IMG/VR virus record: IMGVR_UViG_3300010231_000010
Coordinates: 1-52,233 of that record
DNA: 52,233 nucleotides
Strand: one strand, 5' to 3'
DNA from: a virus
Shown: piece by piece, positions 685 to 12,458 of the stretch
Layout of the letters: every line of letters starts with the position of its first letter
Numbering within the stretch: the first letter of the stretch is position 1
Position numbers and translations under genes: made by a program
The notes under the pieces: model-generated
Databases searched by the model: none
What the model saw: only the letters and a program-made list of their open reading frames with translations
Told to the model about the DNA's origin: nothing

Positions 685-698
685 GCGTTGTGGCGGAA

Positions 699-736
699 CG
701 CAAAACCAGGCGACAGGCGAAATAGAATCGCAAGTA
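699..736 (+). promoter_or_regulatory. Candidate promoter giving a leaderless ATP-grasp transcript
   Basis: A TAGAAT (TANNNT) hexamer lies at 723-728, 7 nt upstream of ATG 736 (730-735). There is no Shine-Dalgarno sequence and no convincing -35. Confidence 0.3.
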
Positions 737-1566
737 TGGTCGAGCGCCAATTCCGCGTAGTCACCCATAAGCGGTGGCTCGCTGAGTTGTTCCAGCCAAT
801 GGGCGCAGTGATCGATCATGGCTTCGACATCGACCCCACGACGGCACTGGACACGATCTGGTGGGCACCCGGCGCATGGGTCGCCAGCGCGCACCTGTCC
901 GGCATTCAACTGCCGCTTCTGAGTTGCGGACCGGATTGGCTGGTGCACCTGCCCCAGCGGTACAGCGGTCGCCGCGTGGAGAACAAGGTGCTCGCTGACA
1001 TCACGCCCGGGAAGCTGGAGCCGACGTTCGCCAAACTTCCCGAGGTCAAGCACGACGGCGTTCCTGCGCGGGCCTACGGTGAGTGCTACCTGCGCGACAC
1101 ACTGGCTCAATACAACCTCCCTGCCGAGACGGTGTGGCAGTTACAGGAGCCGGTCGACTTCCGCATCGAAGCGCGCTTCTGGATTGCACACCGCAAGATC
1201 GTCGCCGAGAGTCCATACCGGATCGGCACCATGATCTGGGGTTACAACGGCTTCGAGCGCGCGGGACAGCGGCTCATCAAATCCCGCACCTACGCCACGA
1301 TGCGAGACTTTATCCAGACCGTGCTGACCGATGACGGCGTGGATATCGCGCCGGGTTGCACCATCGACGTTGGCATGACGACCGACGGACCCCTAATCGT
1401 CGAGGCCAATGCCGCCTGGTCATCTGGACCGTATGACGGCGACCCTGCCGGTATTCACGCGGCAATCGTCGCCAGCCACGACTTCGAGGGGCGCTACCCG
1501 CAGTGGACGTGGCGGCACAGTCCGGTGTTCGACAAGGCTCGACCGCTGCACCTGACCGCCGCCTGA
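736..1566 (+). CDS. ATP-grasp fold protein (R2K/DUF4343-like amidoligase candidate)
   Basis: ATP-grasp motifs occur in the expected order: FAKLPEVKHDG (nucleotide-binding Lys), LQEPVDFRIEARFWI (conserved Glu/Arg) and DVGMTTDGPLIVEANAAW (Mg-binding E-x-N). ATG 736 is preferred over the upstream start at 688. Confidence 0.7.
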   Translation: MVERQFRVVTHKRWLAELFQPMGAVIDHGFDIDPTTALDTIWWAPGAWVASAHLSGIQLPLLSCGPDWLVHLPQRYSGRRVENKVLADITPGKLEPTFAKLPEVKHDGVPARAYGECYLRDTLAQYNLPAETVWQLQEPVDFRIEARFWIAHRKIVAESPYRIGTMIWGYNGFERAGQRLIKSRTYATMRDFIQTVLTDDGVDIAPGCTIDVGMTTDGPLIVEANAAWSSGPYDGDPAGIHAAIVASHDFEGRYPQWTWRHSPVFDKARPLHLTAA

Positions 1567-1647
1567 AACTCGTTGGAACCGTTCGGCCGTCGTAGCCGTC
1601 TATACCTGTAGATCGTCCCCGGTCAACTCTCCAGGCTGGGGGCGATC

Positions 1648-1896
1648 TCAGAACGGCAATTCGTCATCCCACAGAGCAATATCCTCGGCGGTCTCGCGCT
1701 CCACTTGTTCGGCAAGTGCGATCCATGGTTTGAACGCTTCCGCGAGCCGACCCGCCGCACGCGCCATCGCTTCGGTCGCGATGGCAACTCGACCAGCCAA
1801 GTCGGCAAACCGTGCATCGAGGCAGACAACCTCGGCGCCCGCCACCACCGCAGCGCCTTCGACGATCAGCTCAGCCTCGAACACCGCGTCTTCCAT
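1648..1896 (-). CDS. Hypothetical 82-aa Ala/Glu-rich helical protein ending in an SSB-C-terminal-tip-like motif (WDDELPF)
   Basis: GC3-rich minus-strand ORF located 8 nt after the upstream gene. The opposite-strand ORF 1730..2140 is a Pro/Ser/Thr/Arg-rich artefact. The last codons, 1651-1671, encode W-D-D-E-L-P-F. Confidence 0.65.
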   Translation of the reverse strand: MEDAVFEAELIVEGAAVVAGAEVVCLDARFADLAGRVAIATEAMARAAGRLAEAFKPWIALAEQVERETAEDIALWDDELPF

Positions 1897-1904
1897 GCCT
1901 CTGA

Positions 1905-2156
1905 TTATGCGCCGATCTGCTCCCGATACACGTCCTCCGCCCGCAACCCCGGCGCCAGATTCCCCAGCAGATTCGCCACCAACTTCCGCGCACCCGCCTC
2001 CGAGTAGTCGTCAATCCGGAAGCTCGACGACTTTCCGTTCTCCACAACCGACCACGCAACAACCCACACCGGATACCCGACGACAGCGGCACCGGTGGAC
2101 TCGGTTGCGGTGCCGGTCGTCAGCGTCACCTTGGTTGTGAAGCGGGTGATACCCAT
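1905..2156 (-). CDS. Hypothetical 83-aa protein (first gene of the minus-strand pair)
   Basis: GC3-rich ORF. ATG 2156 is chosen because TACCGT (TANNNT) lies 7 nt upstream, making a leaderless start plausible, and because the longer 2228 start would run through the attP arm repeats. Confidence 0.55.
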   Translation of the reverse strand: MGITRFTTKVTLTTGTATESTGAAVVGYPVWVVAWSVVENGKSSSFRIDDYSEAGARKLVANLLGNLAPGLRAEDVYREQIGA

Positions 2157-2167
2157 GACGCGGACGG

Positions 2168-2251
2168 TACGGAATGGAACCGACAAGCAAGGAATGGCAG
2201 TGCGGTATGTTGTGGGCGGCAAGTTCATGAGGGTACAGTTCTGGGTACAGT
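2168..2251. promoter_or_regulatory. attP P-arm: candidate arm-type integrase binding repeats
   Basis: GGAATGGAAC at 2171-2180, GGAATGGCAG at 2191-2200, and GGGTACAGT at 2231-2239 and 2243-2251. All are in direct orientation, and both motif families recur on the other side of the core. Confidence 0.6.
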
Positions 2252-2281: not shown

Positions 2282-2324
2282 GGGGCGGTAGCTCAGTTGG
2301 TTAGAGCCGGGGACTCATAATCCG
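2282..2324 (+). other. attP core candidate: 5' half of a tRNA-Met(CAU)-like sequence (not a complete tRNA)
   Basis: GGGGCGG-TA-GCTC-AGTTGGTTA-GAGC-C-GGGGA-CTCATAA-TCC gives an acceptor 5' strand, a full D-arm, and an anticodon stem-loop with CAT. The match breaks off in the 3' anticodon stem; there is no T-arm or acceptor 3' strand downstream. Confidence 0.6.
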
Positions 2325-2388
2325 TTGCATGGGGTATGCTCAACAGCACGGACTTGTCAAATGTGCAGGTAGAGACCGTTTCTGATTG

Positions 2389-2472: not shown

Positions 2473-3741
2473 ATGACGCGCAGGTCGCCTGGCGATGGAA
2501 CCCTCTTCAAACGCGCTTCCGATGGCATGTGGATCGCCGGATACACCGTGCAGATCGAAGGCCGCTCAGTGAAGAAACGCGTCTCATCAAAAACCCGCAC
2601 TGGTGCCATCCAGAAGCGCAAGGAACTCAAAGCCCAACTCGACGCCGGCACCATTCCCGGCGCGACCAACATCCGCATGGACCGATGGCTCGACCACTGG
2701 CTCAACAACGTCAAGAAGCCCCGCGTCGACCCCACCACGTTCCGCAGCTACGAGAGCACTGTCCGCCTCTACCTAAAACCCACCATCGGACACCTGCGCA
2801 TGGACCGGCTCACCACCGACCACGTCCGCGAAATGCACAAGACACTGCAGACAGGCACCCACGAGACACCCGGCTCAACCCGCAACGCACAGAAGGCGCA
2901 CCAGGCCCTCGGCGCCGCACTCAAGGTCGCCCAGGCCGAACTCGGCCTGCAACGCAACGTCGCCGCCCTCGTTGGCATGCCCGTCCACGTCGCAAAGAAG
3001 TACCCTGCCTTCACAGTCCCCGAGGCGCTGCACATCATGAAGGTCGCCGACGAAGTGTGTGACCCCATGTGGGCCGCACGCTGGAAGGCCGGATTCATGA
3101 CCGGCAAGCGTGAATGCGAAGTCCTCGGCATCACCTGGCCGCGCCTCGACCTCGACGACGACCTCATCGACATCTCATGGCAGCTGCAGGAGCTGACCAA
3201 GGAACACGGCTGCGGCCCCGCCGTTGATGGCCGCTACCCCTGTGGCAAGAAACGCGTCAGCTTCTGCCCGGACGCCTACTGGGACTTCCGCGCCGGCTAC
3301 GAGCACGAGTTCTGCGAAGGCAACCTCGTGTGGACCCGCCCGAAAACCCCACGCACCGAACGCGTCGCAATCCCGGTCATAAAGCCCCTACACGACACCC
3401 TCGTCGACCTCCGCGAACTCAAAGGCCCCAACCCACACAACCTCGTGTTCCACCACGCCGACGGCTCACCCATCAGCCAGTCGCAGGACCAGAAGGCGTG
3501 GCAGAAGCTCCTGAAGACCGCCGGGGTTCCACACCGACGGCAACACACCCTGCGCCGCACCGCCATCACCCTGCTCCGTGCCGCCGATGTCGACGAGCAG
3601 ACCCGCATGGAACTGTTCGGCCACGCACACGCCGACACGCAGCGCCGCTACGCCGACTCCGACATCGCCGCCCACAAAGCCGCCATGGCCAAACTCGCCG
3701 ACATGCTCGCAGTCCAAGACCTCGACGACGACGAGACCTAG
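2473..3741 (+). CDS. int: Tyrosine integrase
   Basis: 422 aa with a basic N-terminal arm-binding-type region. The C-terminal catalytic signature is HTLRRTAITLL...LFGHAHADTQRRY (R...HxxR...Y). Confidence 0.95.
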   Translation: MTRRSPGDGTLFKRASDGMWIAGYTVQIEGRSVKKRVSSKTRTGAIQKRKELKAQLDAGTIPGATNIRMDRWLDHWLNNVKKPRVDPTTFRSYESTVRLYLKPTIGHLRMDRLTTDHVREMHKTLQTGTHETPGSTRNAQKAHQALGAALKVAQAELGLQRNVAALVGMPVHVAKKYPAFTVPEALHIMKVADEVCDPMWAARWKAGFMTGKRECEVLGITWPRLDLDDDLIDISWQLQELTKEHGCGPAVDGRYPCGKKRVSFCPDAYWDFRAGYEHEFCEGNLVWTRPKTPRTERVAIPVIKPLHDTLVDLRELKGPNPHNLVFHHADGSPISQSQDQKAWQKLLKTAGVPHRRQHTLRRTAITLLRAADVDEQTRMELFGHAHADTQRRYADSDIAAHKAAMAKLADMLAVQDLDDDET

Positions 3742-4373
3742 GGGCAACTCGGGTAGATCGCCATCACGTCGCCGATGAACACCTGTGCGATGACGTAGTT
3801 GCCTCGAGATGCCTGCGCGTATTCGTCCGTTACGGCCGCGATGGATCGGCCATTCGATAGGCGCGCGCAGACCAGGTGGGCATCGCGTGCCATTGATGCG
3901 TAGTCCTGGATCGTGATGCCCTGGCCAGTGAGCCGGTTGAATAGCTGCTGGTCGTAGATGCTCACCCACTGTGGCGCTGCGGGTGTTGGTGCTGGTGCGG
4001 CTTTCGTGCTGATGGCTGGCGGCGCTTGGATGACGGTGGTTATCACGGTCACCGGTGGTGGGGGAGGTGGCGCCGGCGGTGGTGCTGCGACAGGGGTTGG
4101 TGGCGTCGGCGATGGCGTTGCGGCCAGCGGCGTCGTGTCAGCGCGCCGTGAATGGCCAACGAATAGGACCGCGCCAACAACCAGGCCGGCTACCGCGACG
4201 ATGCCGCCCGCGATTAGGGCAACCCGCACCCGCGAAACGGGCTCGGGGTAGTCAAGCACCGGCAACTCTTCGCTGTACGCGAGCTGCGGGCCTGTCTCAG
4301 GTATAGCTACACCCAACTCTGTCGCGCCGCACTGCGTCAGCGCTTCGTGGTCGACCGATTCATTCTCTGACAT
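3738..4373 (-). CDS. Membrane-anchored DUF732-like protein (N-terminal TM, Pro-rich linker, C-terminal two-Cys domain)
   Basis: The start at MSENES (4373) follows the upstream gene stop at 4381. It has a TM segment ALIAGGIVAVAGLVVGAVLFV, then APPPAPPPPPP, then ...AHLVCARL...AIYPSCP. Its stop overlaps the int stop in a shared CTAG. Confidence 0.7.
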   Translation of the reverse strand: MSENESVDHEALTQCGATELGVAIPETGPQLAYSEELPVLDYPEPVSRVRVALIAGGIVAVAGLVVGAVLFVGHSRRADTTPLAATPSPTPPTPVAAPPPAPPPPPPVTVITTVIQAPPAISTKAAPAPTPAAPQWVSIYDQQLFNRLTGQGITIQDYASMARDAHLVCARLSNGRSIAAVTDEYAQASRGNYVIAQVFIGDVMAIYPSCP

Positions 4374-10895: not shown

Positions 10896-11062
10896 AAGAC
10901 ACCAGACTTCAGCAAGCACTCGCCGCACTCGACGACGCCAGAACCACACTCAAAGACATCCTGGACGAGGGCGGCATCATCGGCCCCGACCACACATTCC
11001 TGATCCTTGCCTGCGACGACACCAACCGCGCCATCGACAAGGTGAAAGCGGTGGCGGCATGA
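10892..11062 (+). CDS. Hypothetical 56-aa protein
   Basis: ATG 10892 with GGGGAG upstream. Confidence 0.55.
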   Translation: MKDTRLQQALAALDDARTTLKDILDEGGIIGPDHTFLILACDDTNRAIDKVKAVAA

Positions 11063-11889
11063 CCCTGCACACCTACCCCGACATCGAACAAGGCTCCGAC
11101 GAATGGCTCGAACTCCGAAGAGGCATCGTCACCGCCAGCACCGTCGGCTCACTCATCACCACACGCCGACTCACCGCAATCGACTACGAATGCCCCAAAT
11201 GCACAGCCCCACCAAAGAACCCATGCGTCGGACTACGCGACCCAGGCAAGCCACTCGCCACACTGCACGGCGAACGGACCGCCTTCGCCAAGGAGCAACC
11301 GTCGCCGCTCATCATCGAACCGGCCAGCAACGACATCAGCCGCGACCTCACCGCACTCCTTGTCTCCGAACGCATCACCGGCTGGGTTGAACCAACTTGG
11401 GTGTCCGATGACATGCTCCGTGGGCATGAGGACGAGCCCCTAGCGCGTGCTGCCTACGCCGAACACACCGGACTAACCGTCACCCAGTGCGGGTTCATGG
11501 CTCGCGAAGAGCAGCACTGGAAGCTGGGATTGTCACCGGACGGTCTGGTCGGCTCGGACGGGCTATTGGAGATCAAGTCCCGCCGCCCCAAAGGCCAACT
11601 GAAAACCGCTCTCCTGGACGGCATCCCCGCCGAACACATGGCGCAGTGTCAGGCCGCGATGGTCGTGTCTGGACGCTCCTGGGTCGACTACGTGTCATTC
11701 GCCGGCGGGATGCGGCTGATCATCAAACGTGTTCGCCCGAACACGGACTGGAACCGCGCCATCGTCCAGGCGGTCAAACAGTTCGAACTGAATGCGCGCG
11801 AGTTGCAACGCCAGTACGACGAGGCAACGGCGCACATGCCGATGACCGAACGCAATCCGATGATCACGGGGGAGCTGAAACTCGCATGA
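11059..11889 (+). CDS. YqaJ/lambda-Exo-like recombination exonuclease
   Basis: N-terminal QGSDEWLELRRGIVTAS and the central ...LLEIKSRR (E-x-K) PD-(D/E)xK motif. Between them is an inserted CPKC...C segment. Confidence 0.8.
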   Translation: MTLHTYPDIEQGSDEWLELRRGIVTASTVGSLITTRRLTAIDYECPKCTAPPKNPCVGLRDPGKPLATLHGERTAFAKEQPSPLIIEPASNDISRDLTALLVSERITGWVEPTWVSDDMLRGHEDEPLARAAYAEHTGLTVTQCGFMAREEQHWKLGLSPDGLVGSDGLLEIKSRRPKGQLKTALLDGIPAEHMAQCQAAMVVSGRSWVDYVSFAGGMRLIIKRVRPNTDWNRAIVQAVKQFELNARELQRQYDEATAHMPMTERNPMITGELKLA

Positions 11890-12458
11890 AGATCACCGCA
11901 GAACCACGCAGCGATCAACTCAATGCCGATGATTTCGTCGGCAGTGCGATGACGTACACGATCGCGGGCGTCAAAGTTGGTACAGCAGAACAGAAGTACG
12001 ACATCGCCTTAGCTGAGGTGTCGGGTCGTGTGTGGCGTCCACCGTTGACTGTGCTGCGCCTGTTGATCGCGGCGTGGGGTGACGAGGCCGCGAACTGGAC
12101 CGGCAAGCGAGTCACCCTGTACCGCGATGAGACGGTTCGCTTCGGCTCCGATGCGGTCGGTGGAATCAGGGTGTCGCACATGAGTCACCTTCCGACCGGC
12201 GACAAACCGTTCACCGTGAAGCTGACATCAACACGGGGGAGACGTGCCAGCCACACCGTCGAACCGCTTGTGACCCTGCCTCCGATCACTGATGACGATG
12301 CGCTGGATTTTGGGCGTGCGATCAGTGAGGCCGCGTCGGTTATCGAGTTGGAAGAGCTTAAGGCGCAACTGAAGGCGCGTGATTTGGGTGGTCATCGGGG
12401 CGTGTTGCAGTCGGCGTGGACGGCCAGAAACAACGAACTGAAGGGGACGGGAGCATGA
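11886..12458 (+). CDS. Hypothetical protein in the position usually held by the exonuclease partner (annealase/SSB)
   Basis: ATGA overlap with the exonuclease; 190 aa. I do not recognise any RecT, Erf or Rad52 motif. Confidence 0.6.
   Translation: MKITAEPRSDQLNADDFVGSAMTYTIAGVKVGTAEQKYDIALAEVSGRVWRPPLTVLRLLIAAWGDEAANWTGKRVTLYRDETVRFGSDAVGGIRVSHMSHLPTGDKPFTVKLTSTRGRRASHTVEPLVTLPPITDDDALDFGRAISEAASVIELEELKAQLKARDLGGHRGVLQSAWTARNNELKGTGA

Follow-up and report, generated by a model that had tools for sequence, protein, structure and literature searches.

The C-terminal tip of SSB, the bacterial protein that binds single-stranded DNA, serves genome maintenance in bacteria as its central recruiting peptide and has been proposed as an antibiotic target. 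In Bacillus subtilis this tip (SSB-Ct) reads DDDLPF, the Escherichia coli ssb-113 mutation is P176S, and the Pro-Phe pair is the most constrained part of SSB tips. Acidic tails ending in Phe are also found in phage T7, where gp2.5 (an SSB) and gp4 (a primase–helicase) dock through them on T7 DNA polymerase. The E. coli tip is F-DDD-I-PF (peptide WMDFDDDIPF), that of Halomonas is F-DDE-I-PF, and the mycobacterial sequences end in GGGDDEPPF in Mycobacterium tuberculosis (sequence of PDB 1UE1) and in GADDEPPF in Mycobacterium smegmatis (PMC3575820). SSB-Ct peptides and small-molecule mimetics disrupt SSB–client interactions, examples being fragment work on DnaG–SSB (PMC5872125) and the ClpX-activating peptide FGGGDDEPPF (PMC7847540); activation of ClpX by free mycobacterial SSB-Ct peptide needs the terminal Phe (PMC7847540). 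Phage RecT-type recombinases use the SSB-Ct as a handle (PMC13490951). In open-access papers and preprints we found no description of a natural tip-only protein or of a phage SSB-tip mimic or decoy. Here we analyse orf82, a gene in the 52.2-kb, 62% GC genome of a temperate, Mycobacterium-phage-like virus (IMG/VR record IMGVR_UViG_3300010231_000010, positions 1 to 52,233; this whole stretch of 52,233 nucleotides is called the window below). The gene lies on the minus strand at 1648..1896, stop codon included, and encodes an acidic, predicted helical protein of 82 residues that ends in ...IALWDDELPF, followed by TGA. We propose, with a probability of about 0.45, that this protein is a free-standing docking peptide of the SSB-Ct type, presented on a helical scaffold and acting as a competitor or adaptor at the pocket by which a host client binds SSB.

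The C-terminal tail is conserved and strictly terminal

The codons for W76-D-D-E-L-P-F82 (1651..1671, minus strand) specify an SSB-Ct-like tip that is conserved in all six members of the family, that is, in the window protein and its five homologues. In each of them W-D-D-E-[LMI]-[PRG]-[FY] stands at the extreme C-terminus. The Trp, both Asp and the Glu are invariant, so the acidic run at positions -5 to -3 is always D-D-E, and the codons vary synonymously (GAT/GAC, GAA/GAG). The penultimate residue is Pro in four of the six proteins, the window protein included, Arg in P0013 and Gly in P0014, and the terminal residue is Phe in five and Tyr in one (P0014). A stop codon follows directly after the terminal aromatic in every gene, at the same position, as TGA, TAG or TAA. 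Because different stop codons occupy one fixed position, the terminal position itself appears to be selected, which would be expected if the peptide is read through its free carboxylate. The residues that precede the tip, ...EQVERETAEDIAL, are predicted to be helical up to residue 79 and include no Gly/Pro/Gln-rich disordered linker; the last block of an AlphaFold2 (AF2) model has a predicted local distance difference test (pLDDT) score of 62, suggesting a flexible tail after a long helix. On the evidence of this alignment, the C-terminal motif of orf82 is functional and not accidental. The first-pass annotation of this DNA, which had pointed out the resemblance to SSB tips, named homologues losing the C-terminal motif among the observations that would speak against it; the motif is kept in six of six.

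A β-clamp-binding motif (QL[SD]LF or QLxLxL) was also considered for the tail and rejected: the tail reads D-E-L-P-F, it contains no Gln and its acidic residues are invariant.

orf82 is a real gene of a very rare family

Of the six reading frames, that of orf82 scores best by codon log-likelihood (16.2), and its value of 0.198 per codon equals that of a neighbouring gene for an ATP-grasp protein. Five homologues of 82–87 residues at 36–49% identity, and no further relatives, emerged when 1.8 billion representatives were searched with HMMER without an index and 5.8 billion clusters were then searched with a profile. One of the five carries the label 'hypothetical protein' in a Mycobacterium aquaticum prophage. 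Pairwise ratios of nonsynonymous to synonymous substitution rates (dN/dS) between orf82 and these five range from 0.09 to 0.51, with synonymous sites saturated. In all six loci the gene starts within -8 to +9 nucleotides of the stop codon of the upstream gene on the same strand, and this abutting start suggests translational coupling. Some features are those of a chance open reading frame (ORF) in GC-rich DNA: orf82 is short, its Shine-Dalgarno spacing is weak (GAGG 1 nucleotide from the ATG), the GC content at third codon positions is 0.66 and the family is extremely rare. That orf82 is such an accident is nevertheless very hard to credit, given that its frame is the best of six, that five homologues of the same length occur in different contexts with the above dN/dS values (synonymous sites being saturated), and that start and stop positions are conserved, the start always abutting the upstream gene. 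orf82 is a real gene under purifying selection.

Relatives of orf82 are very scarce. In tblastn with three family members as queries, 50,697 phage records yielded none, a scan of metagenome contigs likewise yielded none, and a profile-guided scan of IMG/VR and GTDB species genomes returned the M. aquaticum prophage as the sole relative. At two metagenomic loci compared with the phage collection (L008 and L009; loci and proteins are numbered with the prefixes L and P), the DNA flanking the orf82 homologue is Mycobacterium-phage-like, as is each family locus for which a placement can be made. Three large repetitive proteins matched by HMMER (P0009, P0010 and P0012) were rejected as relatives: these matches are compositional, covering only the Ala/Val/Gly-rich residues 10–64 and leaving the tail unmatched.

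The body of the protein is acidic and predicted to be helical

The orf82 protein is 26% Ala, with a net charge of -12 and an isoelectric point (pI) of 4.05. AF2 models it as one long helix spanning residues 2–79 (pLDDT 91). Codons 8–25 (1822..1875, minus strand) encode the invariant residues A8, I11, A15, V18, E22 and C25, whose spacing (i, i+3, i+7 and so on) places them on one helical face; this face is a candidate interaction or oligomerisation surface. We detected no SSB or OB fold in orf82 with Pfam (E ≤ 1) or with an SSB hidden Markov model (HMM) to which the SSBs of E. coli, M. tuberculosis and B. subtilis and 53 viral SSBs contributed, and the AF2 model is all-helical. A profile search of the PDB gave chance-level matches to designed antiparallel coiled coils only, and a fold search with the single-helix model found no match. 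No meaningful match in Pfam, PHROGs, NCBIfam or PADLOC was obtained for orf82, for its five homologues or for the adjacent gene orf83, which is discussed below. These results bear out the earlier description of orf82 as helical, without an OB fold, and as belonging to no described family, Pfam, PHROGs, NCBIfam, PADLOC and PDB alike giving no match for it.

A WXG100/ESX-secreted protein was considered and rejected, as the alignment lacks both WXG and Tyr-x3-D/E and there is no Pfam match at E ≤ 1, PF06013 included.

The acidity raises another explanation, that the whole protein, like Ocr, ArdA, gp5.9 and Gam, is a mimic of DNA or single-stranded DNA (ssDNA) and blocks a host enzyme that binds DNA, the tail being one part of a larger mimicking surface. 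The charge is indeed a family trait (net charge -10 to -17 over 82–87 residues and pI 4.05–4.3 in all six members), and an elongated helix is predicted for the window protein. Conservation, however, is seen in the terminal heptapeptide and along one apolar helical face and does not extend to most of the acidic positions; a strictly terminal aromatic residue answers to no known need in DNA mimics; and neither sequence nor fold matches a known mimic. We regard DNA mimicry as improbable.

SSB-type tips occur on many other mobile-element proteins

In a scan of IMG/VR, DDELPF directly before TGA was found at no fewer than 120 loci (L012–L131), against 8 and 5 loci for two scrambled controls matched to it in composition and degeneracy, making DDELPF at least 15-fold commoner. 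Among the DDELPF-TGA matches listed, 53 of 120 are canonical SSBs by HMM, from which it follows that the hexapeptide is a natural SSB tip. The other carriers among these matches include a gp2.5-like SSB family, an HNH protein, a T7-gp4-like primase–helicase, a superfamily 2 (SF2) helicase and many small proteins of no known type. None of the matches listed, whether SSB or other protein, has Trp at -6. When metagenomes were scanned for WDDE[LIVM]PF followed by a stop codon, only 12 of 86 ORFs were canonical SSBs, and among the rest Pfam recognised a ResIII/DEAD helicase, a Prim-Pol/PriCT_2 primase, a NUMOD4-HNH nuclease, a DarT ssDNA ADP-ribosyltransferase and an Abi_C protein. Non-canonical carriers with 40 residues or more number 116 ORFs and form 73 BLAST clusters, a count to be read with the ORFs having been chosen by the motif itself and with a crude SSB filter. 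Judged from carriers selected in this way, the SSB-type tip seems to behave as a portable module on DNA-acting proteins of mobile elements.

Several further observations concern these scans, whose metagenome loci are numbered L134–L253. The non-SSB carriers include a SpoVG-like protein, and example loci are L186, L200, L181, L243, L166 and L179. An SF2 helicase with a WDDE[IV]PF tail exists in a short form of 589 residues (L186) and a long form of 946 residues (L157 and L164); in the long form, an insertion of about 350 residues, perhaps an intein, follows the helicase motif region. Matches to WDDExPF ending in TGG were rejected as a chance control, since they constitute one real family with an internal WDDExPFW, and scrambled motifs were used instead. 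This family, with W-D-D-E-x-P-F-W lying 221–227 codons before the end, accounts for 34 metagenome loci among L135–L253 (for example L135, L138 and L146) and is unrelated to the terminal-tip proteins.

A proposed mechanism at the SSB–client pocket

The replication genes of the phage bear on what the tail might do. The SSB HMM found no canonical SSB in the whole window. In the early region, from 5.7 to 23 kb, no ORF is longer than about 325 residues, which leaves no room for a DNA polymerase or a helicase of DnaB size, and none of the ten largest early proteins has a polymerase domain. With a YqaJ exonuclease and a replication initiator but no SSB, polymerase or replicative helicase of its own, the phage must use the SSB-centred machinery of the host. 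As a separate observation, the YqaJ-type exonuclease, which has a phage zinc-finger insert, is followed by a 190-residue phrog_11517 protein with overlapping stop and start codons (11059–12458). This protein takes the place expected for a RecT- or Erf-like annealing protein and may be an unrecognised single-strand annealing protein.

We propose that the functional part of orf82 is its C-terminal linear peptide, W-D-D-E-(L/M/I)-x-(F/Y)-COOH. This peptide shares the chemistry of an SSB tip, namely an acidic run, an aliphatic residue, usually Pro, and a terminal aromatic with a free carboxylate, and would most likely insert into the pocket by which SSB-client proteins bind the SSB-Ct. Such docking is made plausible by the ability of a bare mycobacterial tail peptide to activate ClpX, by the use of the SSB-Ct as a handle for RecT-type recombinases, and by the reliance of this phage on host machinery. 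Acting as a decoy or inhibitor, orf82 would compete with host SSB for a client; acting as an adaptor, it would link the client to some partner of the conserved helical face near the N-terminus. It might also self-oligomerise and present several tips, as the SSB tetramer does. We infer the engagement of an SSB-Ct pocket, the identity of the client and the direction of the effect, whether inhibition or recruitment.

Several points weigh against such docking on SSB clients. The Pro-Phe pair, so constrained in SSBs, varies within the family (Pro to Arg in P0013 or to Gly in P0014, Phe to Tyr in P0014), yet Trp never varies at -6. With Gly at -6 and Pro at -2 in mycobacterial SSB, the orf82 tip is no copy of the host's, and the resemblance to SSB spans seven residues only. 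M. smegmatis RecO (MsRecO) does not bind the SSB-Ct; the SSB clients of mycobacteria, which are poorly known, thus form a different list from those of E. coli. As for the scaffold, the AF2 model was built from an alignment of six sequences and has a predicted template modelling score of 0.45, and over the first 34 residues the hydrophobic periodicity has its peak at 164 degrees, a value that suits a strand better than a helix. With six members in the family, the statistics are thin.

Some of the same observations suit a different reading, in which the tail docks on a target outside the SSB interactome, either a phage protein or another host hub, and its likeness to the SSB-Ct is convergent acidic-aromatic chemistry. 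It is W-D-D-E rather than P-F that is invariant, and two of six tails lack the penultimate Pro; the host tip DDEPPF has no aromatic residue at -6; and the DDELPF matches listed, SSB or otherwise, have no Trp there. Phe-ended acidic tails of T7 bind targets that are not SSB clients. We found no motif class that fits better, however: a β-clamp ligand needs Q-L-x-L-F, the FtsZ tail continues past its Phe, and WXG100/ESX signals are absent. Nor is there a conserved neighbour that could serve as a dedicated phage partner, and the phage has no polymerase to dock on. We consider a target of this kind a serious but doubtful prospect.

orf82 is a passenger beside a conserved gene

The window places orf82 at the edge of an integration module. 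Upstream of it on the same strand, across a gap of 8 nucleotides (1897–1904), lies orf83 (1905..2156, minus strand; 83 residues, TAA at 1905–1907). On the other side, convergent with orf82, is a gene for an ATP-grasp protein of the R2K clade (688..1566, plus strand; PF14243 at 3.8e-15, PF18299 at 1.9e-13, phrog_29595 at 5e-64). The common core of the phage attachment site attP (2282..2336, plus strand) is equivalent to the 5' portion of a tRNA-Met (CAU) gene: it has 94–96% identity to both ends of M. abscessus prophage records, and a partial alignment matches it to the 5' portion of a CAU-anticodon tRNA. ARAGORN found no complete tRNA at attP. Exact repeats of ACGGAATGGAAC, which resemble arm-type sites, stand on either side of the attP core at 2169–2180 and 2390–2401 (attP region, 2282–2383). 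Divergent from orf83 across attP is an ORF of 422 residues with a good coding score (2473..3741, plus strand), which, from its position next to attP and its sequence, we read as a putative tyrosine integrase. The attP core comprises the 5' rather than the usual 3' part of the tRNA, so that after integration the region upstream of the intact tRNA gene would come from the phage arm on the orf83 side.

The first-pass annotation placed two minus-strand ORFs between the ATP-grasp gene and attP, as the ORF list confirms, and its picture of them as the last genes of the prophage, reading inward from the junction, is geometrically correct for this window. It went on to treat them as a pair in a position typical of prophage defence genes, and here the comparison with other loci points elsewhere. 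orf83 has six homologues with 66–87% identity, five of which start with MGIT and the sixth of which has a longer N-terminus. They adjoin integrases or integration modules, and none has orf82 downstream. The neighbours of the five orf82 homologues, in turn, are unrelated to orf83 and to one another on both sides in an all-against-all BLAST, and this comparison of neighbours found no conserved partner gene across the six orf82 loci. The homologues sit in rightward operons of lytic type: immediately upstream of terminase at L009, a few genes ahead of terminase at L007, and after a lysis cassette and a DUF7427 gene at L008. With the M. aquaticum locus the window shares only a 153-residue protein of unknown function and part of the replication initiator. 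Thus orf82 is missing beside all six orf83 homologues, as orf83 is beside all five orf82 homologues, and adjacency to attP is peculiar to this window. orf83 is a conserved stand-alone gene and not a dedicated partner of orf82. Its predicted fold is β-β-β-α-α (AF2, pLDDT 71); a fold search of PDB and BFVD gave nothing at E ≤ 0.001, the best match being COMM-domain-like with E 0.02, and a PDB profile search of orf83 gave no match.

The nearest relative of the window in the phage collection is Mycobacterium phage Maddy2 (L001, PQ115172.1), over a partial alignment. In Maddy2, positions 4001–4123, between the integrase region and the ATP-grasp homologue, hold an unannotated orf83 remnant covering residues ~40–80 at 71% identity; orf83 appears to be decaying there.

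In a blastn comparison with Maddy2 and L002, homology to both stops near the end of orf83, at window position 1919/1927, and resumes at 1649/1647, at the orf82 stop codon, which argues that this one phage has orf82 as a discrete mosaic insertion within the transcription unit of orf83. The segment absent from the closest relatives is about 270 nucleotides long (1650..1918, minus strand) and comprises the last orf83 codons, the 8-nucleotide spacer and all of orf82; from the alignments it is a mosaic insertion or deletion module. In the mechanism proposed above, orf82 would be an inserted passenger of this transcription unit, adjoining attP.

The boundaries of the unit carry conserved elements. 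The 9-mer TACCGTCCG (2161..2169, minus strand) lies 7–10 nucleotides upstream of the orf83 ATG and is kept at a similar distance at all four loci that were compared (window, L002, L003, L006), in surrounding sequence that differs; TGTCGG stands about 11 nucleotides upstream of it in all four. TACCGTCCG is likely to be the -10 element of a leaderless or short-leader promoter for orf83 and orf82. Generic scans for sigma-70 promoters and T-run terminators around the two genes were negative. The spacer of the putative promoter coincides in the window with one of the arm-type-like attP repeats, and integrase binding might therefore affect it. At the other end, a conserved non-coding block of 75 nucleotides starts at the orf82 stop codon (1574..1649, minus strand). 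It has 81–89% identity to L002 501–576 and L003 6407–6480, its copy in Maddy2 (from 4125) lies inside a longer match of 74% identity, and it is present in four otherwise different phage or prophage contexts. Within it, a hairpin at 1611–1647 (minus strand), GATCG-CCC...GGG-CGATC, has 11 pairs in the alignment consensus and a conserved loop, GGAGAGT. The block matches no Rfam family and the hairpin has no T-run. The hairpin probably marks the end of the leftward transcription unit, and for the block as a whole the candidate roles are those of terminator, regulatory RNA and recombination boundary.

These features also bear on the possibility that orf83 and orf82 form a two-gene prophage defence or toxin–antitoxin module expressed from the attachment junction in lysogens. 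The genes lie on one strand 8 nucleotides apart, beside attP and between the conserved promoter-like element and the conserved hairpin, and lysogen-expressed genes of actinophages often occupy the attP-side position. They are found together only here, however, orf82 is an indel relative to Maddy2 and L002, and no PADLOC defence model gives a meaningful match. Lack of co-occurrence largely refutes such a module, which we now think a poor prospect, most improbable on balance.

Comparison with known systems

If orf82 does dock on SSB clients, phages would exploit the SSB hub by mimicry, using little more than a tip on a helix. The gene would then offer a genetic tool for titrating SSB clients in mycobacteria, whose client list is poorly defined (RecO no, ClpX yes), and a search rule, in which a conserved terminal [DE]3-aliphatic-P-F on a non-SSB protein would point to proteins that target the replication fork. 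Judging by our scans, such tips appear to be spread over dozens of unrelated viral and mobile-element families, defence toxins like DarT included, and a link between these tips and fork targeting would be testable. Whether orf82 is the first natural free-standing antagonist or adaptor of the SSB–client hub, shutting down or diverting a host client of genome-maintenance or ClpX type through a bare tip on a helical, possibly oligomeric, scaffold, within a large unrecognised class of mobile-element proteins with a tip grafted on for access to the replication fork, is a more far-reaching proposal, against which we would at present wager.

Compared with a bacterial SSB-Ct, the orf82 tail is alike in its place at the extreme C-terminus, its three acidic residues, the aliphatic residue, the usual Pro and the terminal aromatic. 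Its aromatic residue at -6, a Trp, parallels the Phe of the E. coli and Halomonas SSBs, and the tail follows a predicted flexible region. Unlike SSB, the orf82 protein has an acidic helical body of about 75 residues in place of an OB-fold tetramer, and it has neither an ssDNA-binding domain nor a Gly/Pro-rich linker; and across the family, again unlike SSB, the Pro position is variable (P, R or G) and the Trp at -6 invariant.

Small phage proteins of Staphylococcus reportedly bind DnaI or DnaN. They resemble orf82 in being small, fast-evolving, phage-specific and, on our proposal, aimed at host replication proteins, but they have no relation to it in sequence or motif and do not mimic an SSB tip. 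Closer are gp2.5 and gp4 of T7, in which a phage acidic-aromatic tail serves as a docking or competition device and which show that such tails occur beyond SSBs; their carriers, however, are large DNA-binding or enzymatic proteins and their target is a phage polymerase, whereas the phage described here has no polymerase and the orf82 carrier no recognisable domain. Synthetic SSB-Ct peptides are laboratory reagents, unlike orf82, but they too are free tips uncoupled from ssDNA binding that fill client pockets, and this analogy lies behind the idea of a decoy. Possessing most, not all, of the sequence features of an SSB-Ct, orf82 would be a known type of docking peptide on a new, domain-less carrier.

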